Below are positions 1,600-29,368 of a DNA stretch of 64,000 nucleotides, in pieces. The notes under the pieces were generated by a model, which was not told where the DNA came from, ran no database searches, and was given only the letters and a program-made list of their open reading frames with translations. Position numbers and translations under genes: made by a program. Position 1 is the stretch's first letter, and each line of letters opens with the position of its first letter. This DNA is from Candidatus Microgenomates bacterium (GTDB lineage: Bacteria > Patescibacteriota > Microgenomatia > Levybacterales > UBA12049): the NCBI GenBank assembly GCA_025451195.1, contig JANWKV010000017.1, positions 2,471-66,470 of the forward strand, written 5' to 3'.

Positions 1600-1716
1600 C
1601 ACTATTGACAAACTGTTTTTTTATTTGTATCATTAAAAAAATGAAAAGCGCAAATATTGTATTAACAACAACTACAACACCTTTTTAGAGGGGGCTGTAG
1701 TTTATGTGCAAATTAC

Positions 1717-1739
1717 GACCTCCGCAAGGAGGTTTTTTT
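1717..1739 (+). terminator. Rho-independent terminator (CCTCC-GCAA-GGAGG followed by T7)
   Basis: A GC stem, a 4-nt loop and a 7-T run lie about 120 nt after tRNA-Val. Confidence 0.55.
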
Positions 1740-1826
1740 GTGGTTTACCCTCTGTCGCTAAAGCTATGGAGGGTTCAGAAACTCTAAAACTCGTGAAACT
1801 CGTTAAGAGTTTATAGAAAAAACGAT

Positions 1827-3739: not shown

Positions 3740-4809
3740 AAAAAATAAGAGTTGGAATACTCGGAGCAACAGGAATGGTGGGACAAAGATTTATTCAGCT
3801 GCTTGAAAACCATCCGTGGTTTGAAATCAATTGCGTTGCAGCATCACCTCAATCTGCGGGGGAAAAATATGCCGACGTTGTTTCCAAACGTTGGTGCTTT
3901 AATTCCAAAATACCCCGTGCAGTGAAAAATTTAAAAATTTATGCGGTAATTGAGGATATTATAAAAATTACAAAATTGGTAGATTTTGTTTTTTGCGCAT
4001 TGGATTTGGAAAAAGATGAGATCAGAAAAATCGAAGAAAAATATGCAAGTCTTGGAATACCTGTTGTGTCAAACAATTCCGCAAACAGATGGACCAAAGA
4101 CATCCCGATGATAATGCCGGAAATTAATCCAAATCATATAAAACTTATTGATATCCAGAAAAAAAATAGAGGTTGGAAAAAAGGATTCATTGCTGTCAAA
4201 CCGAACTGTTCAATTCAATCGTATGTATCCATCTTAACAGCATTGAAAGATTTTTTACCAAAAAAAATTAATGTTGTCAGTCTTCAAGCAATATCTGGAG
4301 CAGGAAAAACTTTTAAATCTTGGCCGGAGATGGTCGACAATTTAATTCCATTTATAGGAGGGGAAGAGGAAAAATCGGAAAAAGAACCTCTTAAGATCTG
4401 GGGAAAATTAAAAAATGGAAAAATTGAACAAGAGCGTCTAAAAATTTCCGCGACTTGCATAAGGGTACCCGCCTCTGATGGGCATATGGTTTCTGCCAGT
4501 GTAAAATTTGTGAAAAAACCATCAAAGAATGAGTTTATAGAAGCAGTTTTAAACTTCAATCCCCTTGAAAAATTAAATTTGCCCTCTTCACCCAAACAAC
4601 TTATTACATATTTTGAAGAGGAAAATTTTCCGCAAACTAATTTGCATAGAAATTTGGAAAATGGAATGGGAATTTCCATGGGAAGATTGCGGGAAGACAA
4701 TGATTTTGATTATAAATTTATTGCACTTTCCCACAATACAATCCGAGGAGCAGCAGGTGGAGCAATTTTAACTGCCGAACTTTTAGTTAGGAAAGGATAC
4801 ATTTTATGA
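3736..4809 (+). CDS. asd: Aspartate-semialdehyde dehydrogenase
   Basis: VGILGATGMVGQRF Rossmann fold; Asd-type C-terminal domain (…IALSHNTIRGAAGGAIL). Confidence 0.85.
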   Translation: MKKIRVGILGATGMVGQRFIQLLENHPWFEINCVAASPQSAGEKYADVVSKRWCFNSKIPRAVKNLKIYAVIEDIIKITKLVDFVFCALDLEKDEIRKIEEKYASLGIPVVSNNSANRWTKDIPMIMPEINPNHIKLIDIQKKNRGWKKGFIAVKPNCSIQSYVSILTALKDFLPKKINVVSLQAISGAGKTFKSWPEMVDNLIPFIGGEEEKSEKEPLKIWGKLKNGKIEQERLKISATCIRVPASDGHMVSASVKFVKKPSKNEFIEAVLNFNPLEKLNLPSSPKQLITYFEEENFPQTNLHRNLENGMGISMGRLREDNDFDYKFIALSHNTIRGAAGGAILTAELLVRKGYIL

Positions 4810-5441
4810 TAATTTCTTTTATTGGAATGTCCGGCGTTGGAAAAACATATTGGTCAAAAAAACTTGAAAAAAAGGGATTTAAGCGGTTTTGCGTGGACGA
4901 AATGATTGAGGAAAAACTAAAATCCGATCTTAAAAAATTTGGATATAAAGGAATTAAAGACGTCGCAAAATGGATGGGTCAACCTCTTGATAACAAGTAT
5001 AAGCAAACAAGTAAAAAATATCTTAAGTTTGAGGAAGAGGTTATGCAAGAAATTATTAACTATTTAGAAACAAGGACAAATAGCGAAAGAGTTGTTGTAG
5101 ATACCACTGGCAGTTTAATTTATACAGATAAATCTTTGCAAAGACACCTAGCTAAAAATTCAAAGGTTGTATATTTACATGCTCCAAAATCTGTAAAAAG
5201 AGAAATGGTTATCCGTTACGTTAAAGAGCCAAAACCAATATATTGGGGAAATTTAGCTAAAAATAAGAAAGTCCACAAAACACGAGAATTTCTTATTAAA
5301 GAATACCCAAAGCTTTTGGAATATAGAACAAAAAAATATCAGAAAATTGCTGAGATTTTCTTTGATTATCATTTAATAAGGCATAAAAATTTTACAGAAG
5401 ATGTTTTAATAGATGTTTTAAAAAAATATGATCAAATATAA
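4806..5441 (+). CDS. P-loop NMP/shikimate-kinase-fold small-molecule kinase; sits in the position normally held by homoserine kinase
   Basis: Walker A ISFIGMSGVGKTY at the N-terminus. 211 aa. Overlaps asd and thrC by 4 and 14 bp. Confidence 0.6.
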   Translation: MIISFIGMSGVGKTYWSKKLEKKGFKRFCVDEMIEEKLKSDLKKFGYKGIKDVAKWMGQPLDNKYKQTSKKYLKFEEEVMQEIINYLETRTNSERVVVDTTGSLIYTDKSLQRHLAKNSKVVYLHAPKSVKREMVIRYVKEPKPIYWGNLAKNKKVHKTREFLIKEYPKLLEYRTKKYQKIAEIFFDYHLIRHKNFTEDVLIDVLKKYDQI

Positions 5442-15994: not shown

Positions 15995-18226
15995 TTACGG
16001 TGTAGGAGTAGGTGTTTGCGTGCCGGACGGATTTAAAAGGTCTGCAGGAGGATACCATTGGTAATCTGCTGCGGAATGAGTACGTTTTATCCAATCATCT
16101 ATTCCTTGTTGCCATCTATTCTGTCCATCTGTAGAAACAGGATCGTCTTCTTTTACAACGTAATATGTTTTTCCGTCCTTCTCTTGATAAAAAGGGGATA
16201 CAGAAGTTGGTTCCGTACCTTTAATAAAATATTCTGACCTTGTTGGCATATCTTTATAAGGTAGACCTCCAAACAAACTGTCTATTGTAACTGCTATAAC
16301 ATCATCCGGTTTTTGAGGAGGCTCATCTTTTTTCCCTTTTAATACATAAGACATTATTTTATTCCAAATTGGCGAAGCACCTGTCTCACCGCTTGATATT
16401 GCCTGATTCATAACAGAATTGTCATTGTTGCCAACCCAAACACCTACAACATATGACGGTGTGTAACCAATTGCCCAGTTATCTCTTTTTTCATCTGTTG
16501 TTCCTGTTTTAACGCTGACTGTTTTACCCGGCACAACAAGCCAGGAATTTGGCCCAAAATCCATGGTGCGGGCGTTATTATCCAGAAGAATGTGGGATAT
16601 TAAAAATGAAACTTCGGGCGACAAAACTCTTGGGCCTGGTTGTGGATGCGCTTGATACAAAACATTACCGTGACTGTCGGTAACTTTTAGTATAAAAATC
16701 GGGTCTTGCCTAATTCCTTCGTTTGCAAAAACACCGTATGCTGTTACTTCGTCTAAAAGCGTTGTTTCCCGCCCTCCCAGCACAAGAGATAAACCAACAT
16801 CCTGAACATTTTCAGGTGTTGGGTCCCAATTTTGAATTCCCATTTGGTACCCTTGCTGCATAACATCCCGAATTCCAACTCGTGCAAGCATTTTTACGGC
16901 AGGAATATTTAGAGAATTTCCAAGCGCAAAACGTAACTGCTGAGGTCCATGGTCTTTTCCGTCATAATTTACCGGAGTATAAATTGGATTTTTGGGATCA
17001 CCCGATGGAAAATCTGTCTTTACATCCATAACTACACTGCCGGGAGTATAACCCTTTTGGAAAGCAACTGCATACATAATAGGTTTAAGCGAAGATCCGG
17101 GCTGTCTGTTGGCAACAGCGGCATTAAAATTTCCATCGTTTGCCGTGTCAAAATAATCTTTAGACCCAACCATGCTAAGTATTTCTCCGGTTTTTGCGTC
17201 GGATACAATCGATGCTCCATTTCCAACATGGTAATCCTTTAATTTGTCTATTTCCGTATTTACAATATTTTCGGCCTGTTTTTGAATAGAATAATCAAGT
17301 GTTGTTGTAACCTGTAATCCTCCATTTTCCACTTGTTGGTCTGTAAAGTGAAGTTGATTAATTAGAAGTTGTTTTACATACATAACAAAATGTGGAGCTT
17401 TAATAGACGTATTATTGTCGGAAAATACCATCGCTTTTATCTCACTTAATGCACTATCAGATTGTTTTTGTGTTATATATCCATCTGCTACCATTTGAGC
17501 CAATACATCTTGAGACCTGCCAATATAATACTTATTTCCGCTTAGAGGATTATATATACTTGGGCCTTGCGGCAACCCCGCAAGAAGAGCACATTGGGCT
17601 AAATCCAAATCGTTTACATGCTTTCCAAAATAAGTTTCCGATGCCGCTTCAACTCCAACATTTGCACCGCCATACGGAACATCATTAAGATACATTTCTA
17701 AGATTTGGTCTTTACTGTATCTTTTGTCTACCTGAATGGCCAAAATTAATTCTTTTATTTTTCTGGGAAGTGTACGCTCTGAAGATATAAGTGTATTGCG
17801 AACTAATTGCTGTGTAATTCCGGAGCCGCCGGTAACTCTACCTTCTAAAACAATATCTTTAATTACACGAAGGTAACTAAGCGGAGAAAATCCTTGGTTT
17901 GAGTAGAAATTTTTATCTTCTATTGCAATAGTTGCGCTTTGTAGATTTTTAGGAATATCGGAAAGATTTACATAAACTCTGTTTTGCGAGGCATAAACCG
18001 AATATAATAGTATACCTGTTCTATCAAAAATCCGTGTTGATTCCGCTTCTTGTGCTGTAACCAACTTACCAGGCGTTGGTAAATCCCTGCTGTACCAAAT
18101 AAAAGCCACTACCGTAAGTATAACCAAACCTATAAGGGCGTAGAATGCGTATGTTGTTAGTTTGCTAAAAAGAACAATTCTTGACCCTCTGAGGGCAATT
18201 CTTTGTCTCCTGCTCTTAAAACCCAT
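15995..18226 (-). CDS. Class A penicillin-binding protein (bifunctional glycosyltransferase/transpeptidase, PBP1A-like)
   Basis: N-terminal transmembrane segment; GT51 motifs (…GGSGITQQLVRN…); transpeptidase SxxK (GSSLKP), SLN and KTGT motifs; Pro/Thr-rich C-terminal tail. Confidence 0.85.
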   Translation of the reverse strand: MGFKSRRQRIALRGSRIVLFSKLTTYAFYALIGLVILTVVAFIWYSRDLPTPGKLVTAQEAESTRIFDRTGILLYSVYASQNRVYVNLSDIPKNLQSATIAIEDKNFYSNQGFSPLSYLRVIKDIVLEGRVTGGSGITQQLVRNTLISSERTLPRKIKELILAIQVDKRYSKDQILEMYLNDVPYGGANVGVEAASETYFGKHVNDLDLAQCALLAGLPQGPSIYNPLSGNKYYIGRSQDVLAQMVADGYITQKQSDSALSEIKAMVFSDNNTSIKAPHFVMYVKQLLINQLHFTDQQVENGGLQVTTTLDYSIQKQAENIVNTEIDKLKDYHVGNGASIVSDAKTGEILSMVGSKDYFDTANDGNFNAAVANRQPGSSLKPIMYAVAFQKGYTPGSVVMDVKTDFPSGDPKNPIYTPVNYDGKDHGPQQLRFALGNSLNIPAVKMLARVGIRDVMQQGYQMGIQNWDPTPENVQDVGLSLVLGGRETTLLDEVTAYGVFANEGIRQDPIFILKVTDSHGNVLYQAHPQPGPRVLSPEVSFLISHILLDNNARTMDFGPNSWLVVPGKTVSVKTGTTDEKRDNWAIGYTPSYVVGVWVGNNDNSVMNQAISSGETGASPIWNKIMSYVLKGKKDEPPQKPDDVIAVTIDSLFGGLPYKDMPTRSEYFIKGTEPTSVSPFYQEKDGKTYYVVKEDDPVSTDGQNRWQQGIDDWIKRTHSAADYQWYPPADLLNPSGTQTPTPTP

Positions 18227-18266
18227 ACAAATATTATAACTATCTAAAGCCGTTAAGGCAATAAAT

Positions 18267-18295
18267 TTGACATTAAAAAGGAAACCTGAGATAAT
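18267..18295 (+). promoter_or_regulatory. Sigma-70-type promoter: TTGACA, 17 nt, GATAAT
   Basis: Consensus -35, 17-nt spacer and a near-consensus -10, about 140 nt upstream of the DAHP synthase ATG. Confidence 0.5.
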
Positions 18296-18349
18296 ATTTT
18301 TTGTGAGAAAGTTACAACAGAAAAATAGTTTTTGGTTTTATTTTACTTC

Positions 18350-18420
18350 CCTCCGGGAGGAGGCTTAAGGCTGTAAAATAAAGCCATAAAGCACTTACCT
18401 CCCAAGCGGGAGGTTTTTTT
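18350..18420 (+). promoter_or_regulatory. Leader attenuator: upstream hairpin CCUCC-GGGA-GGAGG, then intrinsic terminator CCUCCC-AAGC-GGGAGG-U7 ending 13 nt before the first aro gene
   Basis: Two hairpins built from the same CCUCC/GGAGG words allow alternative pairing. A 6-bp GC stem plus seven U sits between a promoter and the operon it must read through. Confidence 0.55.
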
Positions 18421-18433
18421 ATGTTTAAAATAT

Positions 18434-19276
18434 ATGATTTCAACTAAATTACGAAGAAAAATTATAATTGCAGGGCCTTGTGGGGCAGAAACAAAGGAAC
18501 AAATTGAAGATTCTGTGCGTGAAGCTAAGAATCTCCAGGTTGATTTTTTACGGGTAAATCTTTGGAAGCCACGCACAAAACCAGGTTTTGAAGGATTACA
18601 AAAAGAGGGATTGGAACTTATGATCGCGGCCGCAAAAGCCGGAATTACACCTGGCACAGAAGTTATCATGCCTCAGCATGCAAAACTTGTTATAAAACAT
18701 GTGCTGGCGGCAACAAAAAACGGTAAAGTGCTTATCTGGATTGGAGCGCGCAACCAGAACCATTTTATCCAAAGAGAAATATCAAAAATTGCATCCAAAA
18801 ACAACAGAGTTATTCTTATGGTAAAAAATCAAATCTGGCATAACGAAAAACACTGGGAAGGAATTGTGGAACATATCATGTCAGGCGGGATTAAGAAGGA
18901 AAACCTGTTACTTTGCCATAGGGGATTTGCGCCAATTGGAGAAAATCCAAACGGCTACAGGAATGTTCCGGATTTTGACATGGCAATGAGAATAAAAGAA
19001 AAAACGGGAATTCCCATGATTTTTGATCCATCCCATACAGGAGGAAGTATTGAAAAAGTATTTAAAATTTCACAAGAGGCGGATAACTTCGACTTTGACG
19101 GATACATGGTAGAAGTTCATCCAAATCCTAAACAAGCCTTGTCTGATGCAGATCAGCAATTAACATGGACTCAATTTAAATTGTTGCTCAAAGATCTATA
19201 TAATAGAAGAGTGGAGAAAACCAAAAGCCCTGATAAATTTTTAAGTAAAATTATTTATGAAAAAATTGTTAATTAA
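18434..19276 (+). CDS. 3-deoxy-D-arabino-heptulosonate-7-phosphate synthase (DAHP synthase), type I-beta, unfused
   Basis: IIAGPCGAE, KPRTKP, IGARN, LCHRG, DPSH and VEVHPNP…ALSD motifs are of the DAHP synthase/KDO8P synthase I-beta family. KPRT (not the KANRSS of KDO8PS) and the aro context favour DAHP synthase. Confidence 0.8.
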   Translation: MISTKLRRKIIIAGPCGAETKEQIEDSVREAKNLQVDFLRVNLWKPRTKPGFEGLQKEGLELMIAAAKAGITPGTEVIMPQHAKLVIKHVLAATKNGKVLIWIGARNQNHFIQREISKIASKNNRVILMVKNQIWHNEKHWEGIVEHIMSGGIKKENLLLCHRGFAPIGENPNGYRNVPDFDMAMRIKEKTGIPMIFDPSHTGGSIEKVFKISQEADNFDFDGYMVEVHPNPKQALSDADQQLTWTQFKLLLKDLYNRRVEKTKSPDKFLSKIIYEKIVN

Positions 19277-20342
19277 CATTAAAGAGCAAAAGCAGGTTTC
19301 TTATCCGATTTTTATTGGAGAGGATATCCTTTTTAAAATAACGTCTCTTTGTGATTTGTCTAAATATTCAAAAATTGCCGTTGTAACCGATAAAGTAGTA
19401 GAAAAATTACTTCTTAAAAATTCAAGGCAGTTTTTGCCGGAAAATTCTTTTATTATCGTTTTACCATATGGTGAAAGAGCAAAAAATATAGACTGTGTTG
19501 AAGAAATATGGAGGGAATTATTTGAAAACGGATGTGACAGAAAATCAATTGTTATAAATATCGGCGGGGGAGTAATTACAGATATCGGCGGATTTGCGGC
19601 AAGTACTTACATGCGTGGAATTCCATTTATAAATGCACCGACAACTCTTCTTTCTCAGGTTGATGCAAGTATTGGCGGAAAAACAGGAATAAATTTTAAT
19701 GAAATAAAAAATCTGGTTGGCACTTTTGACCAACCAAAAGCAATTATTATTGATACCTCTGTTTTGAAAACTTTGCCGGAAAGAGAATTTGTTTCAGGAT
19801 TTGGGGAAATAATTAAACATGGTCTTATTTCGGATAAAAATTATTTTGAATACGTTACCTCAAAAAAGCCTTATGAATTTACACAGGAAGAACTGGTTGG
19901 AATTATCGAAAAATCCTGCGAACTAAAAGGATCGTTTGTAGGAGAGGACGAGAAAGAAGGAGAATTAAGAAAAACTATAAATTTTGGCCATACTATTGGC
20001 CATGCTCTGGAAAGCTTAAGTTTTGAGACAGACAAACCGCTTACTCATGGCGAAGCAATAAGCATTGGCATGGTTGCAGAATCTTACATTTCGGTTTTTA
20101 CGAATTTATTAAAAGAAAACGAAATTGGAATAATTAAAAATGGCTTTGTTCATGCGGGCTTGCCAATAAGTTACAAGAACATCGATGAAAAAAGGGTTTT
20201 GGAAAAAATTAAGGGCGATAAAAAAAATGAGAGAGGATTAACAAATTTTACTCTTTTACGGGGAATTGGAAAATCTTTAATAAATCAGAAAGTTAGTTCA
20301 AAAATAATACTTGATGCACTTAAAAAAATAAATGAACTATGA
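19257..20342 (+). CDS. aroB: 3-dehydroquinate synthase
   Basis: GGGVITDIGGFAASTYMRGIPFINAPTTLLSQVDASIGGKTGIN. Confidence 0.85.
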   Translation: MKKLLINIKEQKQVSYPIFIGEDILFKITSLCDLSKYSKIAVVTDKVVEKLLLKNSRQFLPENSFIIVLPYGERAKNIDCVEEIWRELFENGCDRKSIVINIGGGVITDIGGFAASTYMRGIPFINAPTTLLSQVDASIGGKTGINFNEIKNLVGTFDQPKAIIIDTSVLKTLPEREFVSGFGEIIKHGLISDKNYFEYVTSKKPYEFTQEELVGIIEKSCELKGSFVGEDEKEGELRKTINFGHTIGHALESLSFETDKPLTHGEAISIGMVAESYISVFTNLLKENEIGIIKNGFVHAGLPISYKNIDEKRVLEKIKGDKKNERGLTNFTLLRGIGKSLINQKVSSKIILDALKKINEL

Positions 20343-22132
20343 ATATAGAATTATTACCGTTAAAAAATCCCGCGAACATACGGATTAAAATTCCCGGTTC
20401 TAAAAGTTATACAAATAGAGCTCTTATTTTAGCATCTCTTACAAAAGGCGTTGTAGAAATAATAAATCCGCTTTTTTCCGATGATACAAATGCAATGATT
20501 GATTGCCTAAAAACTCTTGGGATAAAAATAAACATTCAGCCGGAAAAAATTGTAGTAGCGGGAGATATTTCTGATGTAAAAAATTCCAGATTTATTCTTA
20601 ATGCAAATTTATCGGCAACTACGATAAGATTTATTTTAGCTCTTTGCTATTTAACAAAAGGTGAAAAAATCTTAACTGGAAAACCAGGACTTTTAATGCG
20701 CCCAATTAAAGACTTGGTTGACGGCTTGAAAAAACTGGGCGCAAAAATTGTATACCTTGATAAAAAAGGTTTTCCTCCTGTAAAAGTTTTCCCAATGGTA
20801 TCGGTAATGAAAACAAAAAACATAAAACTAAATGGAAACATAAGCAGTCAATTCTTATCCGCACTGCTTATGACAGCACCTATTCTCGGAGAAATAAAAA
20901 TTGAAGTAGGAAATCTCACATCTATTCCATATGTTGATATGACAATCGAAATGTTAAACCGGTTTGGTATTAATGTTGTAAATGAAAATTACAAAAAATT
21001 TATTGTATTTAAAGATCAAACTTATAAAGCAAACGCTGTTATGATCGAAGGGGATTATTCAAGCGCAACATATTTTGCGGCTGCCGCCGCTATTACAAAA
21101 TCAACGGTGGTTTTAGAAAACCTTAAAACACCTTCTAAACAGGCGGATGCAAAATTTTTTAAAATTCTTGAGGAAATGGGAAATAAAATTACAAGAAAAT
21201 CAAGTGAAATTACCGTTGAAGGAAAAGGCGTTAAGCCTGTTACGGTTGATATGAAAGATTGTCCTGATAGTATCCAAACTTTAGCTGTTTTATCGTCTTT
21301 TGCCAAGGGGCAAACAAAAATTTCCGGGATCCAAACACTGAAGTTTAAAGAAACAAACAGAGTCAACGCAATCGCCAGCCAGTTAAAGAAAATGAAAATT
21401 AAAACAGAAGTTATAAAAAATGTATTAATAATTTATGGAGGAAACCCAAAATCGGCAATTATAAAAACTTATGATGACCATAGAATGGCAATGTCTTTTG
21501 CGGTTGTTGGAAGCAAATTAAATGGAATTATTATAGAAAATCCTAAAGTTGTTGACAAAACTTTTCCATTATTTTGGGAAGAAATTAAAAAATTAGGGAT
21601 TGGCATAAAAAAAATAGAACCGTCTAAACTTGTTCTAATTGGATTTATGGGAGCGGGAAAAAGCTCTGTTGCGCCTCTTTTGGCCAAAAAACTTAACAAA
21701 GAGGCAGTGGAAATGGATCTTATTATAGCTAAAAAGGCAAAAAGAGAGTCAGTTGCTCAAATTTTTGAAAAAGACGGTGAGAAAACTTTCAGATTATTAG
21801 AACTAAAGACAGCAAAAAAGCTCGAGCAAAAAAAAGATATTGTTATTTCAACGGGCGGGGGAGTGATTATGAATAGCAAACTCATGGAACATCTAAAAAA
21901 AGACAGTCTTGTTGTTTTTTTAGATACCGAATTTGAGACTATAAAAAAACGTCTCGCGGATTTTTCTGATAGACCATTATGGAAAAATGAGAAAAAGACG
22001 AAAGAACTTTTTGACACCAGACTTCCTCTTTATTATAAGTACTCTGACTTTATCGTAAAAACAGATGGAAAGTCTTTAGGAATGATTGTTAACGAAGTTA
22101 ATGAAGTTTTTGAAAACTTAGAAAGCTTATGA
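20339..22132 (+). CDS. aroA: Bifunctional EPSP synthase (N-terminal ~425 aa) / shikimate kinase (C-terminal ~165 aa)
   Basis: N-terminus KIPGSKSYTNRALILASL (EPSPS). C-terminus LIGFMGAGKSSVAPLLAKKL…ISTGGGVI (shikimate kinase Walker A and core). Confidence 0.85.
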   Translation: MNIELLPLKNPANIRIKIPGSKSYTNRALILASLTKGVVEIINPLFSDDTNAMIDCLKTLGIKINIQPEKIVVAGDISDVKNSRFILNANLSATTIRFILALCYLTKGEKILTGKPGLLMRPIKDLVDGLKKLGAKIVYLDKKGFPPVKVFPMVSVMKTKNIKLNGNISSQFLSALLMTAPILGEIKIEVGNLTSIPYVDMTIEMLNRFGINVVNENYKKFIVFKDQTYKANAVMIEGDYSSATYFAAAAAITKSTVVLENLKTPSKQADAKFFKILEEMGNKITRKSSEITVEGKGVKPVTVDMKDCPDSIQTLAVLSSFAKGQTKISGIQTLKFKETNRVNAIASQLKKMKIKTEVIKNVLIIYGGNPKSAIIKTYDDHRMAMSFAVVGSKLNGIIIENPKVVDKTFPLFWEEIKKLGIGIKKIEPSKLVLIGFMGAGKSSVAPLLAKKLNKEAVEMDLIIAKKAKRESVAQIFEKDGEKTFRLLELKTAKKLEQKKDIVISTGGGVIMNSKLMEHLKKDSLVVFLDTEFETIKKRLADFSDRPLWKNEKKTKELFDTRLPLYYKYSDFIVKTDGKSLGMIVNEVNEVFENLESL

Positions 22133-22962
22133 ATATAACAGCAACAACTAAAATTTGTTTGGTGATTGGAGACCCGGTTAATCATTCACTCTCTCCTCAA
22201 ATGCACAATACAGCATACGCCGCACTGGGTATTGATGATAAATTTATTCATCTGGCAGCAGAAATAAAAATTGAGAATATTGGCGAAATTGTTAAAGCAG
22301 TAAGACTCCTTAAGATAAGAGGCCTCACGTGCACAATTCCGCATAAGATTACAATCATGAAATACCTGGATAAAATCGACGGAGTCGCGAAAAAGATAGG
22401 CGCGGCAAATTCCATCGTAAATAATAATGGAGTTTTAACGGGATTCAATACTGATTGGGTCGGAGTTTCAAAATCGTTTGAAAATGTAACGCGTGTTAAG
22501 AATAAAAAGGCAGCAGTTATCGGATCCGGAGGGGCAGCAAGGGCGTTTATTTATGCTCTTACCGTAGGCGGAGCAAAAGTAACTGTTTTTACAAGAAACA
22601 TAAAAAATGTTAAAAGTCTTTCTGATGAGTTTGGAGTAAAAATTAAATCTTTTGAACAAATTAGTGAAATTGTAGATGAAGAAATAGTTTGCAACGCAAC
22701 GCCGGTTGGGATGTATCCAAAAATTGATGATTCTATTATTCCTAAAGAATATATAAAGAGAAACCATATTATATTTGACGCTGTTTACAATCCTTTCGAA
22801 ACAAAATTACTAAAAGAGTCGTTGGATAAAGGCGCGACTATTATTCATGGGTATAAAATGCTTCTATTTGAGGCAGCAGAAAAGTTCAAATTGTATACGG
22901 GCTATGACGCTCCAATTGATGTAATGGAAAATGAATTACTTAAAAATTTACAAAATCTATGA
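22129..22962 (+). CDS. aroE: Shikimate 5-dehydrogenase
   Basis: GDPVNHSLSPQMHN substrate-binding motif; GSGGAARA Rossmann fold. Confidence 0.85.
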   Translation: MNITATTKICLVIGDPVNHSLSPQMHNTAYAALGIDDKFIHLAAEIKIENIGEIVKAVRLLKIRGLTCTIPHKITIMKYLDKIDGVAKKIGAANSIVNNNGVLTGFNTDWVGVSKSFENVTRVKNKKAAVIGSGGAARAFIYALTVGGAKVTVFTRNIKNVKSLSDEFGVKIKSFEQISEIVDEEIVCNATPVGMYPKIDDSIIPKEYIKRNHIIFDAVYNPFETKLLKESLDKGATIIHGYKMLLFEAAEKFKLYTGYDAPIDVMENELLKNLQNL

Positions 22963-23636
22963 TTGCAAAATTTTGCTTACCGATTTTAGTAAAAACTAAA
23001 AAAGAAGTTCTGAAAAAAATTACTGAAAATAAAAACCAGTACGATATGTTTGAAGTCTGGATAAGTTCTTTAAAAGAACCTTTTCCGGTTATTCTGGACT
23101 TGATTCAGAACCTTTCTAAAGAACTTCAAGGAAAACTTATAATTGTTTTCAGAGACCGCAACGGAAAAGTTATAATGGAAAAAGACAAAAAGGAAAATAT
23201 ACTTTCTCTTTGTAATAATTCCAAAGTTTTGGTTGATATAGATTTTGAAAACCAAAAAGAAGATTTACAGTTTATAAATATAAACAAGTTAAAAATAAAA
23301 ATTCTCCTTTCTTACCATAACTTTGAAGAGACTCCACATAATTTAATAGAAATAATTGATAGAATGGAAAAAATAAAACCGGAAATAATAAAACTCGCAA
23401 CCAAATGCAATAGCAACACAGATTCGATTAAATTACTTGGACTTTTACTGTTTTGTAAAAAGCGAGGTCTTAAATGCATTGTTTTGGGAATGGGAAAATT
23501 TGGAGTTATTACAAGAATATTTGGCTCTTTATGGGGAAATGAAATCGTTTTTGCGCCGGTTGAAAAAAGGCAAGCAAGCGCATCTGGACAATTAACAGTC
23601 GGACAACTTAAAGATATTTTTGCTATATTAAAATAA
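22959..23636 (+). CDS. aroD: 3-dehydroquinate dehydratase, type I
   Basis: Aligns with type I AroD: SYHNFEETP, catalytic-Lys context LGMGKFGVITRIFG, C-terminus ASASGQLTVGQLKDI. Confidence 0.8.
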   Translation: MIAKFCLPILVKTKKEVLKKITENKNQYDMFEVWISSLKEPFPVILDLIQNLSKELQGKLIIVFRDRNGKVIMEKDKKENILSLCNNSKVLVDIDFENQKEDLQFININKLKIKILLSYHNFEETPHNLIEIIDRMEKIKPEIIKLATKCNSNTDSIKLLGLLLFCKKRGLKCIVLGMGKFGVITRIFGSLWGNEIVFAPVEKRQASASGQLTVGQLKDIFAILK

Positions 23637-23638
23637 CT

Positions 23639-24724
23639 ATGCCGGGAAATACATTTGGACAATTGTTTAGAGTTACAACTTTTGGTGAATCGCACGGAGG
23701 GTGTGTAGGGTGTGTCGTGGATGGGTGCCCTCCGGGTCTTTCTATATCTGTTGGGGAAATTCAAAAAGAATTGGACAGAAGAAAACCCGGTCAAAGCGCA
23801 ATAACTTCTCCCAGAAAAGAAGAGGACGAAATAGAAATTTTGTCGGGGATTTTCGAAGGAAAGACAACTGGTACTCCAATTTTACTCCTTGCCAAAAATA
23901 AAGACATGAAGCCAGAGGATTATTCAGAACTTTCAAAACTTTACAGACCCGGTCATGCAGATTATACATTTGAAAAAAAATACGGGCTTCGTGACCCAAG
24001 GGGGAGCGGCCGTGCATCGGCTAGGGAAACCTTGGCACGCGTTGCGGCAGGAGCAATTGCTAAAAAATTTCTTAAAGAAAAATTAGGGATAGAAATATTA
24101 AGCTTTGTTGAACAAGTTGGAGAAATTAAAACAAACATTGATTTTAATCATGTTACTTCAGAGCAAATTGAGTCAAACGAAATCCGCTGCCCGGACATTG
24201 ATATTGCCGGACAAATGATAAGCCTTATCGAGAAAGTAAGAGATGAGGGAGACTCAGTAGGAGGAGTCGTAAGAGGTATTATTAAAAATGTCCCGGTCGG
24301 ACTTGGTGAACCGGTCTTTGACAAACTACCCGCAGATTTGAGTAAAGCTATGATGAGTATTAATGCGACAAAGGGATTTGAATTCGGATCCGGTTTTGAA
24401 GGAGTAAAGAAAAAAGGGAGCGAACATAACGACGAGTTTGAAGTTGATGAAAAAGGCAACGTTAAAACAAAAACAAATAATGCGGGCGGGACTTTAGGCG
24501 GAATTTCAGACGGTCAGCCTATTTATTTTAGAGTTGCATTTAAACCCGTTTCTACAATAAAAAAGAAGCAAAAAACAATAAACAGAAATAACCAAAACGT
24601 TGAACTTGAAGCCAGTGGACGCCATGATCCTTGCGTTCTGCCAAGAGCAGTCCCAATTGTTGATGCAATGGCGGCACTTACTGTTATGGATCACTACCTT
24701 CGTCACAAAGCTCAGAATTTATGA
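23639..24724 (+). CDS. aroC: Chorismate synthase
   Basis: GQLFRVTTFGESHG, RPGHADYT, GRHDPCV motifs. Confidence 0.9.
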   Translation: MPGNTFGQLFRVTTFGESHGGCVGCVVDGCPPGLSISVGEIQKELDRRKPGQSAITSPRKEEDEIEILSGIFEGKTTGTPILLLAKNKDMKPEDYSELSKLYRPGHADYTFEKKYGLRDPRGSGRASARETLARVAAGAIAKKFLKEKLGIEILSFVEQVGEIKTNIDFNHVTSEQIESNEIRCPDIDIAGQMISLIEKVRDEGDSVGGVVRGIIKNVPVGLGEPVFDKLPADLSKAMMSINATKGFEFGSGFEGVKKKGSEHNDEFEVDEKGNVKTKTNNAGGTLGGISDGQPIYFRVAFKPVSTIKKKQKTINRNNQNVELEASGRHDPCVLPRAVPIVDAMAALTVMDHYLRHKAQNL

Positions 24725-25473
24725 ATATGGATTCGATAGAAAGTAAAACTATTGGTGTTATTGGATTTGGAAATTTTGGCAAAGTAATTTGTAAATATTT
24801 ATTTCCAAAAAATAAAATTGCCGTTTATTCTAACGAACTAAATAATGTTAACCCTTTCAATAACTGTAAGCCTTGTGGATCTTTAAAAGATCTTGTAAAT
24901 TCCGCGGATATTATTATTCCCGCCATACCTATAAAAAAATTTGAGGAAGTAATAAAACAAATTTCCTCAACAATAGCAGAAAACCAAATTGTGATGGAAA
25001 TATGTTCCGTAATGGAATATCCTGTTGAAGTTATGAAAAAATACCTTCCGGAAAATTCAAAAATGATCGCTTCCCATCCGATGTTTGGCCCAAATTCAAT
25101 TCAAAAAAATAAAAACATTCTAAATGGTTTTAAAATTGTGTTATCAAACATTTCTTTGGATAAAAATTTGTATTCTCTTTTTAAAAACTATTTTTTAAAC
25201 CTCAACCTGAACGTGGTTGAATTAAGCCCGGTAGAACACGATGAATATTCTGCAAAATCGCAATTCTTTGCGCTGCTGATTGGCCAGATTGCGCAAGATT
25301 TACATCTTAAAAAAACACAAATTGATACACCTGGCGCAAATGCAATATTTGACTCCATACCTTTTATGGGACCGGACAGAGAAATAATTGAGGACATGAT
25401 AACATACAATAAATTTTGCAGTAAGATCCATAAAGAAATTGTTACTGTTTTAGACGGTTTGAAAAACTCATGA
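24721..25473 (+). CDS. tyrA: Prephenate/arogenate dehydrogenase
   Basis: IGVIGFGNFGK Rossmann fold, HPMFGP motif. Sits between aroC and pheA. Confidence 0.65.
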   Translation: MNMDSIESKTIGVIGFGNFGKVICKYLFPKNKIAVYSNELNNVNPFNNCKPCGSLKDLVNSADIIIPAIPIKKFEEVIKQISSTIAENQIVMEICSVMEYPVEVMKKYLPENSKMIASHPMFGPNSIQKNKNILNGFKIVLSNISLDKNLYSLFKNYFLNLNLNVVELSPVEHDEYSAKSQFFALLIGQIAQDLHLKKTQIDTPGANAIFDSIPFMGPDREIIEDMITYNKFCSKIHKEIVTVLDGLKNS

Positions 25474-26297
25474 CTAATGTTTATTTCTTAGGGCCTGAAA
25501 AATCATTTAGCGAAATAATTACAAAAAAAGTTCTTGATTCAAATCTTTATATTTTTACTCCTTGCAAATCTTTTATAGAGATCGGTGAAAAAGTTTTGGA
25601 AGATAAGGGTTCTGTTGGCGTTTTGCCGATCGAAAATTCCATAACAAGCGACATTCATGAAAATATAGATTTTTTATTCAAAAACAATTTAAACATCGTA
25701 AAAGAAGCATATCTTAATATTAACCTGCATTTAATTGGACTAAAGGCAAGCAAATTAGAAAATATAAAAACAGTATTGTCCCATCCCAGGGCAATTTTAC
25801 AATGCACAAATTTTATAAAAAAACATAATTTTCAACTGGTTGAAACCCTTAGCACCGCGGGAGCAAAAAATATTTTAGAAAAAAATAAAAATCAGAGCCA
25901 AGCATTAATTGGCAGTAAAGAATTGGTAAAAAATGAAGATCAATTTATTATTCTCAAAGAAAATATAGGAAACATTAAATTTAACAGGACCCGTTTTGCA
26001 TTCGTAAGTTCAAAGGATAAAGAAAATATGGGCAATAAAGCTTCCATAGCATTTAAGGTTTTACACAAACCAGGATCTTTAGCTAAGATTTTTTCAGTGA
26101 TTGCCGAAAAAAACCTAAACGTTGATAAAATTGAATCACGCCCAATCCCCGGTACAAATTGGGAGTATTATTTTTGGGTTGATATTGAATCTCATGAAAA
26201 TCTAAAAATAGCTAAAATCGATGAGATTTTTAAACAAAATACTCTAGAATATATTATACTTGGGGTGTATAAGAGAGGAGAAGTTTTCGAAAGTTAA
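25470..26297 (+). CDS. pheA: Prephenate dehydratase with a C-terminal ACT domain
   Basis: PDT domain (VYFLGPEKSFSE…) and ACT domain (ASIAFKVLHKPGSLAKI). Confidence 0.8.
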   Translation: MTNVYFLGPEKSFSEIITKKVLDSNLYIFTPCKSFIEIGEKVLEDKGSVGVLPIENSITSDIHENIDFLFKNNLNIVKEAYLNINLHLIGLKASKLENIKTVLSHPRAILQCTNFIKKHNFQLVETLSTAGAKNILEKNKNQSQALIGSKELVKNEDQFIILKENIGNIKFNRTRFAFVSSKDKENMGNKASIAFKVLHKPGSLAKIFSVIAEKNLNVDKIESRPIPGTNWEYYFWVDIESHENLKIAKIDEIFKQNTLEYIILGVYKRGEVFES

Positions 26298-26299
26298 CT

Positions 26300-26560
26300 A
26301 TGAACGAATTGAAAGATTTAAGAAAAGAAATAGATGCCATTGATAACCATTTGCTGGATCTTATTCAGAAAAGACTTATTGTTATGAAACAAACGGGCGA
26401 TGCAAAAAAAAGATTAGGTAAATCTTTAAAAGATGAAAAAAGAGAAAAAGAAAAAATTTCTCTTCTTGAAAAAAGGTCTAAAGAACTTGGAATTCCTGTT
26501 AGAATAGTTTTAAAAATTTGGCAAATATTTTTTCGCAACTCAGAAGAGATAGAAAAGTAA
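26300..26560 (+). CDS. Chorismate mutase (AroQ class, monofunctional)
   Basis: 86 aa; LRKEIDAIDNHLLDLIQKRL… matches the CM_2 helical fold. Confidence 0.75.
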   Translation: MNELKDLRKEIDAIDNHLLDLIQKRLIVMKQTGDAKKRLGKSLKDEKREKEKISLLEKRSKELGIPVRIVLKIWQIFFRNSEEIEK

Positions 26561-26589
26561 ATAATATAAATGATATACTCAAAAAGCAA

Positions 26590-27813
26590 ATGGACAAAAT
26601 AGAAGAATTATTAACAAGAGGTGTTGACAAAGTTTATCCCACGAAAGAAGATTTGGAAAAAGTTCTCCGCTCAGGTAAAAAACTTACACTTTATCAAGGA
26701 TTTGACCCAACTGGCACCCAGCTTCATTTAGGCCACATTGTGGGACTTAGAAAATTAAAACAATGGCAAAACCTAGGACATCATGTAATTTTTTTAATTG
26801 GTGACGGAACAGGTCAGGCAGGCGATCCATCAGGTAAACTAAAATCAAGAGAAAGATTTTTCACAACAGACGAACTTCGCAAAAATGCACTGGATTACGT
26901 AAAGCAGGCCTCAAAGATTGTAAATTTTGAAGGTGATAACCCCATTGAAATTAAATATAACGGCGATTGGCTTAATAAATTAAACTTAACAAAGCTTCTT
27001 GATCTTGCTGGACATTTTACAGTACAACAAATGATAGAACGCGACATGTTTCAAAAACGGATAAAAGAAAATGCGTCGATAAATTTAAGGGAATTTTTAT
27101 ATCCCTTGCTGCAAGGATATGATTCTGTCGCAATGAACGTTGATTTGGAACTAGGTGGCACAGACCAAACTTTTAATATGCTTGCGGGACGCCAATTGGT
27201 AAAAGATTACTTACAAAAAGAAAAATTTGTCATGACAACCCCGCTTCTCACAGATTCCAAGGGTACAAAAATCGGCAAATCAGAAGGAAATGTTATAGCC
27301 CTTATAGACAAACCCGGAGACTTGTTTGGAAAAGTTATGACGCTACCTGATGATGTTATCGCAAAAGCTTTTGAATACTTAACTGATATTCCAATGGAAG
27401 ACATAAAAAAGATTAGCGAAGACATGAGCAAAGGAATAAATCCTGTTAATCATAAGAAAGAACTTGCGTTTGAGATTGTTAAACAACTTAATGATGATCT
27501 ATCCGCAAACAAAGCCCAAGAAGAATTTGAGAAAGTAATACAAAATAAAGAGCAGCCATCGGAACTCAAAATTTCTGTATTTGATGAGTCTTTCGCGTCA
27601 GAGGCTTCTATTGCAGCAGCAATGACAGCTACAGGAACGGCATCAAGTATTTCAGATGCAAAAAGGACTGCAGAACAAGGTGGTGTTAGTATTAATGGAG
27701 AGTTAATTAAAGACGTAAATGTTCCTTTCAACCAATACTTAAACGAAGATGAAATCATAATAAAAAGAGGCAAACATAATATTGTTAAAGTTAAAATCGA
27801 TAAGAAAAAGTAA
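26590..27813 (+). CDS. tyrS: Tyrosyl-tRNA synthetase. The start is taken at ATG 26590; the ORF track's 26518 start overlaps the chorismate mutase gene.
   Basis: HLGH (HIGH) and KIGKS (KMSKS) motifs; C-terminal S4 domain. Confidence 0.85.
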   Translation: MDKIEELLTRGVDKVYPTKEDLEKVLRSGKKLTLYQGFDPTGTQLHLGHIVGLRKLKQWQNLGHHVIFLIGDGTGQAGDPSGKLKSRERFFTTDELRKNALDYVKQASKIVNFEGDNPIEIKYNGDWLNKLNLTKLLDLAGHFTVQQMIERDMFQKRIKENASINLREFLYPLLQGYDSVAMNVDLELGGTDQTFNMLAGRQLVKDYLQKEKFVMTTPLLTDSKGTKIGKSEGNVIALIDKPGDLFGKVMTLPDDVIAKAFEYLTDIPMEDIKKISEDMSKGINPVNHKKELAFEIVKQLNDDLSANKAQEEFEKVIQNKEQPSELKISVFDESFASEASIAAAMTATGTASSISDAKRTAEQGGVSINGELIKDVNVPFNQYLNEDEIIIKRGKHNIVKVKIDKKK

Positions 27814-27817
27814 TTAT

Positions 27818-29368
27818 ATGAAAAAATTTGCTTTAATTAGTGTTTTTGATAAAACAGATGTTGGTTTTTTTGCCAAAAAATTAATTGATCTGGATTATAC
27901 GATAACTTCAACTGGAGGAACTGCAAAAGCTTTAGAGAGTGAAGATATTCCTTTTGTGCCAATTCAAGAAATTACAGGAAACCCCGAAAGCTTTGATGGA
28001 AGGATGAAGACAATTAGTTTCCAAATAGAATCGGGAATTTTATATGACCGCACAAACAAGAAACATCTTAAAGAAGCGGAAGATTTAAACATTCTGCCAA
28101 TAGATATTGTTGTTTGCAATTTATACCCTTTTGAGAAAACAATTTCTAAAGAAAACGTTAATTTAGACGAAGCGGTTGAAAATATAGATGTTGGTGGACC
28201 AACAATGGTAAGAGCAGCTGCAAAAAATTTTAAGAATGTTTTGATTGTTGTTAACCCAAAAGATTATAAAGAAATAGAACAAAAACTGGAAAATAATAAT
28301 ATAGATGATGTTTTCAGGAAAAAATTAGCAGCAAAAGCATTTGCTCATTTATCATTTTACGATAGTCAAATAGCAACGTACCTTGGCGGCGAATTGTTTC
28401 CCGAAGAGATTACAATTCCGGGACGTAAATTAACAGACCTTCGATATGGAGAAAATCCTCACCAAAGAGGTGCGGTTTATGTAAAACCAGGATTTGATTC
28501 ATCTTTAAAAAATTTGGACAAAAAGTGGGGGAGGGAATTATCTCTAATTAATGTTAATGATATTAATGCAGGACTTGAATCAGTTAGACTTTTTAGAAAC
28601 CCGACTGCTGCAGTTATAAAACATAATAGTCCGTCAGGCATTGCACTTGGAGAAAATGCAAAGGAAGCTTTGAATCGGGCAATTGAGGCAGATCCTGAAT
28701 CCGCGTTTGGAGGAATAATTGTATTGAACGAACCTATGACACTTGACAGCGCGAAAGTTATAGGCAGTTTTAAAGAAGAAAAAAGAGGAAATATAGACAT
28801 TGTTGCAATTCCGGAAATTGATGATGATGCGCTTGAATATTTAACAAGGGTTAGAAAAACAATGGGAATTTATACATTTGGGAAAATTCCAAAAAGTCTT
28901 GATCCAGTTAACATTAAATGGATCGACGGAGGTTTTATTTTACAAACCGCAGATATAGACGTAGACAAAGGGTTTGAAAAGTGGAAAATTGTAACAAAAA
29001 AAACCCCAACCCAAAAACAAATGCAACAAATGGAAATAGCATGGAAATTTATAACAAGAATAAAATCAAATTCGGTAATTATTGTTGATAAAGATTTACC
29101 AATGACAAGAGGTATTGGATCTGGTCAAACATCACGCGTTAGATCCACAAAAATCGCACTCGAACAAGCCGGAAAATTTGGCAAAGATGCCATTTTGGCA
29201 AGCGACAGTTTTTTCCCTTTCCCCGACAGTATCCAGGCGGCCGGTAAAGCAGGTATTACCGCTGTTGTACAACAGGGAGGATCAATCAATGACCAAGCAT
29301 CTATTGACGAAGCGGATAAAAATGATATAACAATGGTATTCACAGGCCGGAGAGCTTTCTGGCATTAA
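27818..29368 (+). CDS. purH: Bifunctional AICAR transformylase / IMP cyclohydrolase. The start is taken at ATG 27818, 4 nt after the tyrS stop.
   Basis: MGS-like N-terminal domain (ALISVFDKTDV…TSTGGTAKAL) and AICARFT C-terminal domain. Confidence 0.9.
   Translation: MKKFALISVFDKTDVGFFAKKLIDLDYTITSTGGTAKALESEDIPFVPIQEITGNPESFDGRMKTISFQIESGILYDRTNKKHLKEAEDLNILPIDIVVCNLYPFEKTISKENVNLDEAVENIDVGGPTMVRAAAKNFKNVLIVVNPKDYKEIEQKLENNNIDDVFRKKLAAKAFAHLSFYDSQIATYLGGELFPEEITIPGRKLTDLRYGENPHQRGAVYVKPGFDSSLKNLDKKWGRELSLINVNDINAGLESVRLFRNPTAAVIKHNSPSGIALGENAKEALNRAIEADPESAFGGIIVLNEPMTLDSAKVIGSFKEEKRGNIDIVAIPEIDDDALEYLTRVRKTMGIYTFGKIPKSLDPVNIKWIDGGFILQTADIDVDKGFEKWKIVTKKTPTQKQMQQMEIAWKFITRIKSNSVIIVDKDLPMTRGIGSGQTSRVRSTKIALEQAGKFGKDAILASDSFFPFPDSIQAAGKAGITAVVQQGGSINDQASIDEADKNDITMVFTGRRAFWH

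Follow-up and report, generated by a model that had tools for sequence, protein, structure and literature searches.

The window analysed here is a 64,000-nucleotide (nt) stretch of contig JANWKV010000017.1 (assembly GCA_025451195.1) from a Candidatus Microgenomates bacterium, and the element in question is the leader RNA that precedes its aromatic amino acid operon. The operon comprises 11 genes (18434-29368, plus strand; Pfam and the list of open reading frames) that are presumably co-transcribed: most junctions between them are 4-nt overlaps or 2-nt gaps, and no plus-strand terminator is predicted between 18413 and 36175. Its first gene encodes DAHP synthase (18434-19276, with its ATG at 18434), followed according to Pfam by DHQ synthase, an EPSP synthase-shikimate kinase fusion, shikimate dehydrogenase, DHQase I, chorismate synthase, prephenate dehydrogenase, prephenate dehydratase, chorismate mutase, tyrosyl-tRNA synthetase (TyrRS) and PurH. 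This content agrees with a first-pass annotation of the same DNA, made from the sequence alone, which had listed the shikimate pathway, the Phe and Tyr branches and tyrS.

Upstream, the leader is bounded by a class A penicillin-binding protein gene on the minus strand (Pfam), whose ATG at 18226 lies 6 nt past the -10 box of its own divergent promoter (TTGCCT-17-TATAAT, 18233-18261, minus strand; promoter scan). The leader promoter, TTGACA-17-GATAAT, is where the first-pass annotation had placed it and scores 11 of 12 consensus matches in the promoter scan, with the -35 hexamer TTGACA at 18267-18272, a 17-nt spacer, and an extended -10, TG-n-GATAAT, at 18287-18295 (TG 18287-88, GATAAT 18290-95) that ends 7 nt ahead of a GTG at 18303. 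We predict that transcription starts at about G18303, because this base lies 7 nt past the -10 and is the first purine at a suitable distance. Between the ATG of the divergent gene and this predicted start there are 76 nt, occupied by the two back-to-back promoters.

A leader reading frame with an aromatic codon run

The predicted first base of the transcript is also the first base of a short open reading frame (ORF). It runs from GTG to TAA (18303-18368, plus strand, stop codon at 18366-68; read from the sequence), has 21 codons and no Shine-Dalgarno (SD) sequence, and would encode (M)RKLQQKNSFWFYFTSLREEA. Five consecutive regulatory codons within it, TTT TGG TTT TAT TTT (18330-18344, plus strand; read from the sequence), specify Phe-Trp-Phe-Tyr-Phe. 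The first-pass annotation missed this sensor ORF with its FWFYF run, and with it the long stem in which the aromatic codons pair with an A-rich strand downstream. A start at TTG 18267 was rejected, being within the -35 box and upstream of any plausible transcript start, and a minus-strand ORF at 18343-18669, antisense to the leader and to the start of DAHP synthase, was treated as spurious. The length of the open frame is uninformative as a test of the leader ORF, since none of the three frames is closed by a stop in the neighbourhood of the U-rich run.

Comparison with relatives is more telling. A DAHP synthase search supplied 88 loci, 8 from reference genomes and 80 from metagenomes (retained out of 461 candidate loci), at 48-66% protein identity. 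Where these loci carry labels, they are mostly Patescibacteria/Candidate Phyla Radiation (CPR), the nearest being Candidatus Levybacteria and 'Patescibacteria group' metagenome-assembled genomes (MAGs); some of the other MAG labels look unreliable. Alignment of eight leaders with MAFFT and RNAalifold recovered the terminator alone, since the central part of the leader came out misaligned, and a covariance model, R1, was used instead, its seed being six hand-annotated leaders that carry the three structures described below (the long stem P1, hairpin 1 and the terminator). The leader model and terminator scans covered 89 sources and 456 kb of DNA in total. At an acceptance threshold of E <= 0.01, R1 found 67 leaders in these sources and exactly one in the window (114.7 bits), and cluster counts below refer to 49 clusters at 85% identity.

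Nearly all loci with enough upstream DNA have an ATG-started ORF of 15-26 codons with an aromatic run just upstream of the operon, for example MKLTQNYFWFYFTSPTEG, MHLQNKSWFYFYFTSQPGRLFRVK and MNTRAQQYFYFFYYWLPSGVVC, each closed by a stop codon. The start codons of these ORFs align at position 1 of the model. The runs in relatives include YFWFYF, WFYFYF and FYFFYF, and over the 49 clusters they are composed of 156 F, 104 Y and 31 W, with Trp present in 31 of the 49. A conserved Tyr codon lies 30, 33, 36 or 39 nt from the start codon in all but one of the 49 distinct leaders, a spacing that preserves the frame, and the sole exception is a misaligned row. The start codon and the in-frame aromatic codon run are the most conserved portion of the leader.

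The predicted position of the transcript start also recurs across the family. Of 54 homologous leaders, 47 have upstream of them a TTGACA-16/18-TAnnnT promoter that matches the consensus at 9 or more of 12 positions, and in those 47 the -10 box ends 6-14 nt ahead of the leader start codon, so near that there is no room for an SD sequence; as a family, these sensor ORFs appear to be leaderless or to have a 5' untranslated region of a few nt. Taken alone, the promoter and terminator scans are not significant, as shuffled sequences yield 2.4 and 0.9 sites per region, respectively. In the window as a whole, -10 boxes just ahead of start codons are modestly enriched (8 of 61 vs a background of 3.9%), and a TATAAT-like box lies 6-7 nt before the ATG at 7699, 12731, 18226 (minus) and 39504 (minus), which suggests that leaderless mRNAs may be common in this organism.

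Alternative folds and a proposed mechanism

In its minimum free energy (MFE) fold the leader forms a long stem, P1, that encloses hairpin 1 and is followed by the terminator (-43 kcal/mol; z = -3.9, with 0 of 200 shuffles as good). The 5' strand of P1 is made by the aromatic codons (18328-18346) and its 3' strand by the A-rich sequence GUAAAAUAAAGCC-A-UAAAG (18373-18392), both placed by the MFE fold and covariation, the latter overlapping the inner helices of the antiterminator described below. Hairpin 1 reads CCTCC (18350-54), GGGA, GGAGG (18359-63); the first-pass annotation had recognised it and placed it 4 nt too high, at 18354-18367, the actual position being 18350-18363. Its 5' arm is segment 1 (CCUCC, 18350-18354; sequence and fold), 6 nt past the last aromatic codon, and its 3' arm belongs to segment 2 (GGGAGGAGG, 18355-18363; covariation and folds), which is also the antiterminator arm. 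The terminator reported by the first-pass annotation, CCUCCC-AAGC-GGGAGG-U7, is likewise found in the sequence: segment 3 (ACCUCCC, 18397-18403) and segment 4 (GGGAGGU, 18408-18414, SD-like), both supported by scan and covariation, form 7 GC-rich pairs around AAGC, and a U7 tract (18414-18420; sequence and scan) follows as part of the terminator and as the spacer from the SD-like arm to an ATG at 18421. All of these segments are on the plus strand. Outside attenuators, perfect-stem intrinsic terminators number about 13 on both strands of the 456 kb (89 sources), vs about 55 in attenuators.

The first-pass annotation had proposed a covariation analysis of homologous leaders, and when run it found the paired elements conserved and covarying in related loci. 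The terminator stem is 97% paired across the family with changes on both sides in 6 of 7 pairs, and hairpin 1 is short, with 3 modelled pairs that are 93% paired. For the terminated state as a whole, the paired fraction of cells is 88.3%, compared with 77.2% in shuffles, both-side changes occur in 21 of 23 pairs, and the covariation score is 0.310 vs 0.145 in shuffled alignments (reached by 0 of 500), falling to 0.03-0.10 when partners are slid by 1-3 columns; such figures support the structures and are not to be taken as probabilities. Within P1, synonymous changes of TAT/TAC and TTT/TTC are compensated on the partner strand: at pair 44:125, for example, UA is found in 25 sequences and CG in 15.

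That the 3' arm of hairpin 1 can pair instead with the 5' arm of the terminator, as the first-pass annotation had pointed out, gains backing from covariation and from a duplex test. The antiterminator (segment 2 with segment 3) lies outside the fit of the model, and nevertheless 84.4% of its cells are paired, with a score of 0.157 vs 0.095 (0 of 500 shuffles reach it) and G:C in place of A:U in 9 sequences. Segment 2 reads GCGGGG in leaders whose terminator is of the CCCCGC/GCGGGG type and GGGAGG where the terminator is CCUCCC/GGGAGG, and the rarer terminator types CCCCU, UCCCCC, GCUCCC and CCUCCUA also match their own segment 2 arm. In a register-free duplex test, own-class pairing averaged about -9.6 kcal/mol vs about -6.5 kcal/mol for cross-class pairing, and 0 of 5000 permutations reached the observed mean. 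When the first aromatic codons are masked in the window fold, P1 is blocked and the MFE structure becomes the antiterminator, in which GGGAGG 18355-60 pairs with CCUCCC 18398-403 and the 3' strand of P1 is taken up again in inner helices (element -21.4 vs -12.0 kcal/mol for the terminator hairpin). The terminator is what forms when the ribosome is modelled at the stop codon or left out.

Computation establishes the conserved reading frame with its run of aromatic codons, the covariation of the stems, the alternative pairing and a conserved start codon 7 nt past the terminator stem (treated below), and together these lead us to conclude that the leader is very probably a ribosome-mediated, leader-peptide transcription attenuator of the aromatic operon. 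At the level of sequence it possesses what such an attenuator consists of: a leader ORF, a cluster of codons matching the products of the operon, a terminator, and an antiterminator that excludes it. RNA polymerase would start at about G18303, and the 21-codon leader ORF would be read from that base. With ample charged tRNAs the ribosome would reach the stop at 18366-68, and in this state, as with no ribosome at all, P1 would pair the codons with 18373-92, hairpin 1 would form from segments 1:2 and the terminator from segments 3:4, so that the polymerase would halt at about 18420. Were Phe-, Tyr- or Trp-tRNA scarce, the ribosome would stall at the aromatic codons, blocking P1 and covering segment 1, and segment 2 (GGGAGG together with the GGCUU...AAGC inner helices) would be free to capture segment 3 ahead of the synthesis of segment 4; with the terminator blocked in this way, the 11-gene operon would be transcribed. 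In the read-through fold the GGGAGG of segment 4 would be single-stranded, a probable ribosome-binding site for ATG 18421, and the 8-codon ORF that begins there and overlaps the start of DAHP synthase would hand ribosomes on to that gene, a hand-over we propose because DAHP synthase has no SD of its own.

Several points weigh against this interpretation. The most important concerns the folds: when a ribosome with a generous +14 footprint is placed on the final two aromatic codons, folding at equilibrium gives the terminator, so the outcome hinges on stall position, footprint size and co-transcriptional kinetics, and it is here that the model is weakest. Hairpin 1, with its 3 modelled pairs, is weak in many relatives. 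The leader ORF of the window opens with GTG rather than ATG, as do those of loci L001 and L009, and its translation would depend on leaderless initiation, there being no SD. The covariation counts come from sequences related by descent, in an alignment that was fitted to the model, and significance is overstated by the shuffle controls. The best Rfam match of the region, Phe_leader (RF01859, 18313-18420), is sub-threshold, with 47.7 bits (E = 1e-6) where the gathering cut-off is 55. Ahead of the start codons of ORFs of 150 aa or more in the window, SD-like motifs occur at background level (9 of 62 vs 13%), so an SD role for GGGAGG, plausible as it is, is one that we infer. More generally, the transcript start, translation of the leader, stalling, termination and use of the SD-like arm are all steps that we infer from the sequence.

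A second attenuator of identical build lies elsewhere in the window (1605-1742, plus strand), upstream of a threonine operon that by Pfam encodes aspartate kinase, homoserine dehydrogenase, aspartate-semialdehyde dehydrogenase (Asd), a small kinase and threonine synthase. Its promoter has TTGACA at 1605-10, a 17-nt spacer and TATCAT at 1628-33, with 7 nt to the ATG at 1641 of a leader ORF (1641-1688) encoding MKSANIVLTTTTTPF up to its stop, in which five Thr codons occupy 1665-79. These codons pair with a downstream complement, a small hairpin comes next, and the terminator (CCTCC-GCAA-GGAGG, 1719-32, then T7) is followed by a GTG at 1740, whose ORF stops 40 nt short of the gene. An Rfam scan of the Thr leader did not recognise it. 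As an independent case with a different amino acid, the threonine twin corroborates the leader-peptide interpretation of the aromatic leader. At the place in the threonine operon where homoserine kinase is expected, a 211-aa protein (4806-5441, plus strand) has weak SKI/AAA_18 (shikimate-kinase-like) matches and may be a non-orthologous homoserine kinase.

The post-terminator start codon and competing explanations

An ATG or GTG stands exactly 7 nt past the terminator stem, right after the U7, in 28 of the 49 clusters, while other offsets average about 1.1. Five 'other' terminators having this feature all proved to be attenuator terminators, and it occurs in 0 of the 13 that remain. In the window the codon opens the mini-ORF MFKIYDFN (18421-18447 with its stop, plus strand; read from the sequence, start codon conserved), which overlaps the start of DAHP synthase by 14 nt. 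The first-pass annotation had described both the GGGAGG-U7-ATG arrangement and this overlapping mini-ORF; the arrangement is real and conserved, and the mini-ORF is present, although it is not the sensing frame, a part played by 18303-18368.

What the +7 start codon opens varies among relatives. It is the start of the first gene itself in L019, L024, L051, L065 and L067, and of an in-frame extension of the first gene in L032, L054-L056 and L066. In the window, and with an ATGA overlap in L002, L012, L014, L015, L025 and L044, it opens an ORF of 2-17 codons that ends on or next to the ATG of the gene, and in L011, L017, L030 and L034 a short ORF that ends far upstream of the gene, with inserted sequence in between. 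The 8-codon ORF of the window is a probable ribosome-entry or coupling ORF, variable in relatives, and the GGGAGG terminator arm probably doubles as the ribosome-binding site for ATG 18421. Reading of the sequence reveals no SD ahead of DAHP synthase itself.

The same features could mean that control is translational alone, the CCUCCC/GGGAGG hairpin hiding the ribosome-binding site and ATG 18421 while the U-run is a mere spacer and nothing terminates; the exact +7 position in 28 clusters, its use as the true start of the first gene in several loci and the shortness of the stem (6-7 bp) would all fit. We nevertheless consider this improbable. A GC-rich stem with an immediate run of 6-8 U is the signature of an intrinsic terminator, and it is found even where +7 holds no start codon (21 of 49 clusters), as well as in the first unit of each tandem leader (L085-L088) and in the Thr leader, whose post-terminator ORF ends 40 nt before the gene. 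Because the U-tract persists where the +7 start codon is missing, termination and ribosome entry appear to be functions superimposed on each other; the one level of control does not preclude the other, and the attenuator that we propose already includes a translational layer.

How far that layer extends is more speculative. A gene behind a 118-nt leader in an SD-poor genome would need internal ribosome entry, and the 3' arm of the terminator would supply it in the antiterminated state. We therefore put forward tentatively, as somewhat short of an even chance, a two-layer relay in which the sensor ORF is leaderless, GGGAGG-U7-AUG is the sole internal ribosome-loading site and is exposed only in the antiterminated fold, and ribosomes proceed by termination-reinitiation through the overlapping genes. 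If so, one RNA word would set read-through and translation of the whole operon together.

Terminator/antiterminator geometry on its own suits any type of attenuator, and the first-pass annotation had proposed an aromatic-responsive attenuator or small riboswitch, with a protein or tRNA as possible effectors. The aromatic-responsive attenuator very probably stands, and with an FWFYF leader ORF present, a riboswitch or a protein or tRNA sensor is not needed. An RNA that senses a ligand, protein or tRNA directly (small riboswitch, T-box, TRAP/PyrR-like), beside an incidental short ORF, is in our judgement highly improbable. The Rfam scan returned weak noise matches, such as PyrR at E = 8, and no T-box or riboswitch family even at E <= 10, and PyrR and riboswitches were rejected for this lack of support. 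A T-box leader spans about 200-300 nt and has a specifier loop and a conserved T-box sequence. The window leader, at about 118 nt, has no room for one, bounded as it is by two divergent promoters that fill the 76 nt between the divergent ATG and the transcript start, and the T-box was rejected, as it had been in the first-pass annotation. The TRAP leader of the Bacillus trp operon holds nine to eleven (G/U)AG triplets at 2-3 nt spacing, and TRAP was rejected as well: 18303-18420 has no array of 9-11 such triplets, with scattered GAG/UAG only, mostly within GGGAGG words. Conservation is also distributed as in a coding sequence and not an aptamer: it is greatest at the start codon and the in-frame aromatic codons, the frame is kept in 48 of 49 leaders, and there are synonymous changes at third bases. 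Finally, the twin at 1641-1688 has Thr codons in place of the aromatic ones, before a thr operon.

Least probable of all is a constitutive or chance feature, such as a leaky terminator, or an insulator that separates the divergent promoters, where a U-rich ORF has arisen by accident: in a genome of 35.7% G+C, U-rich stretches often give Phe/Tyr-rich pseudo-ORFs, many spurious aromatic-rich ORF matches occur on other strands and three frames are open around the run, but position and architecture are conserved in 67 loci whose DAHP synthases are just 48-66% identical, the stems covary, the reading frame is preserved, and spurious aromatic-rich ORFs occur at about 0.02 per 200 nt vs an ORF at the same place in nearly every locus that has enough upstream DNA.

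Known attenuators, variation in relatives and implications

Among known systems, the leader-peptide attenuator of the window bears the closest structural likeness to pheL-pheA (RF01859), in which the Phe run of the leader ORF also pairs with a downstream A-rich strand, followed by small hairpins and a CCUCCC/GGGAGG-type terminator; the Rfam alignment runs from one end of the model to the other and takes in both the long stem and the terminator. Relatives score 29-43 bits against Phe_leader (29-48 for the window and most relatives taken together) and L011 (2704-2823) alone passes (56.4 vs 55), so automatic annotation labels a minority of the family and misses the rest. Unlike the Phe-only run of pheL, that of the window mixes Phe, Tyr and Trp; it controls an 11-gene operon led by DAHP synthase and not pheA, its ORF has no SD and begins at or near the predicted 5' end of the transcript, and the host is CPR-like, whereas pheL genes have been catalogued in gamma-proteobacteria (PMC3082878). 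The resemblance may be convergent, since UUU codons, a strand complementary to them and a terminator are required in either case. We would file the window leader as a leader-peptide attenuator outside Phe_leader, since it falls outside that family by score and by biological definition.

The closest functional analogue is aroR-aroF of Corynebacterium glutamicum, where, according to the summary of Neshat et al. 2014 in PMC11802643, a Phe-Tyr-Phe leader peptide lies ahead of a DAHP synthase operon and stalled ribosomes raise read-through. The two share a mixed aromatic leader peptide and an operon with DAHP synthase first; they differ in phylum, in the 5-7 codons of the run in our family, usually with Trp, and in the start codon conserved past the terminator, and the likeness is one of function. 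With trpL of the E. coli trp operon (Yanofsky 1981) the window shares the four-segment logic (1:2, 2:3, 3:4) in which the position of the ribosome picks the pairing, though the window would sense other codons, adds a long stem made by the regulatory codons and has a leader ORF that would be leaderless. In erm-type translational attenuation, antibiotic-induced stalling of a ribosome on a leader frees an arm that otherwise hides a downstream ribosome-binding site. A ribosome stalled on the window leader peptide would similarly free the RNA arm over such a site; here, however, sensing would be by uncharged tRNA, the hairpin is also an intrinsic terminator, and the use of the SD-like arm is putative. 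Leaderless sensor peptides have precedents in the 14 predicted leaderless attenuator peptides of Deinococcus deserti (PMC4007540) and the leaderless polycysteine short ORFs of mycobacteria (10.1101/834739), which have an AUG/GUG sensor ORF at or a few nt from the transcript 5' end and no SD. The leader of the window, with a transcript start predicted from promoter geometry, would resemble them, though they belong to other phyla and concern other amino acids.

The region around the attenuator is variable in relatives. In L007 (2084-2998) the first gene past the attenuator encodes a PfkB-family kinase (Pfam), with DAHP synthase next, and in L008, L032 and L084 the N-terminus of the first gene product looks similar in sequence. 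Two loci, L011 (2845-2990) and L040 (2905-2995), have an extra conserved stretch of about 90 nt between attenuator and DAHP synthase that is confined to them, ACACAATCCGYC ... TTCGAATAGAA ... GGAGGAT-ATG, and that may be a second regulatory element; different inserts occupy the gap in L013, L017, L022, L029, L034, L037 and L042. No Rfam match was found for the extra sequence between attenuator and gene in L011, L040 and the others. A second, divergent R1 match in L022 (229-99, minus strand; 38.9 bits, with 37.3 for Rfam Phe_leader) faces away from the DAHP synthase leader, has few aromatic codons in its peptide, and would control a gene that the contig end cuts off.

Four loci have tandem aromatic leader peptides about 120-140 nt apart: L085 (1722-1954), L086 (about 1005-1194), L087 (2730-2975) and L088 (388-625), for example MKNTGTQNFYFYFYTCLGGGGCDC and then MIKKLNLKFYFYFYPA, each closed by a stop codon. 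Each leader has its own terminator in L085, L087 and L088, and no perfect terminator was found for the second leader of L086; no promoter was detectable for the second tandem unit in L085, L087 or L088. If the relay proposed above is true, the same module would drive translation of the second tandem leader peptide in L085-L088.

The mechanism itself is textbook trp/pheA-style attenuation; it is the host lineage that is unusual. Members of the CPR are uncultured and, to our knowledge, gene regulation in them is almost unstudied. A search of literature full text found no paper joining leader-peptide attenuation to CPR/Patescibacteria, though its coverage is incomplete and it is weak evidence of novelty. 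The family has three variant traits: a sensor ORF that is probably leaderless, the probable sensing of Phe, Tyr and Trp together, and a terminator arm with a probable second role as ribosome-binding site and a conserved start codon after it. With scores just below the Rfam Phe_leader threshold, the family has been missed by pipelines, and our alignment and R1 could seed a proper one. That a conserved start codon directly follows the terminator, although SD sequences are scarcely used in this genome, suggests how a gene with a long leader may be translated where leaderless transcripts are otherwise relied on. More broadly, a conserved leader-peptide attenuator would imply that transcription and translation are coupled in these cells, that amino acid supply is sensed via tRNA charging, and that the aromatic and threonine pathways, whose completeness is unusual in CPR bacteria, are truly in use in this lineage.

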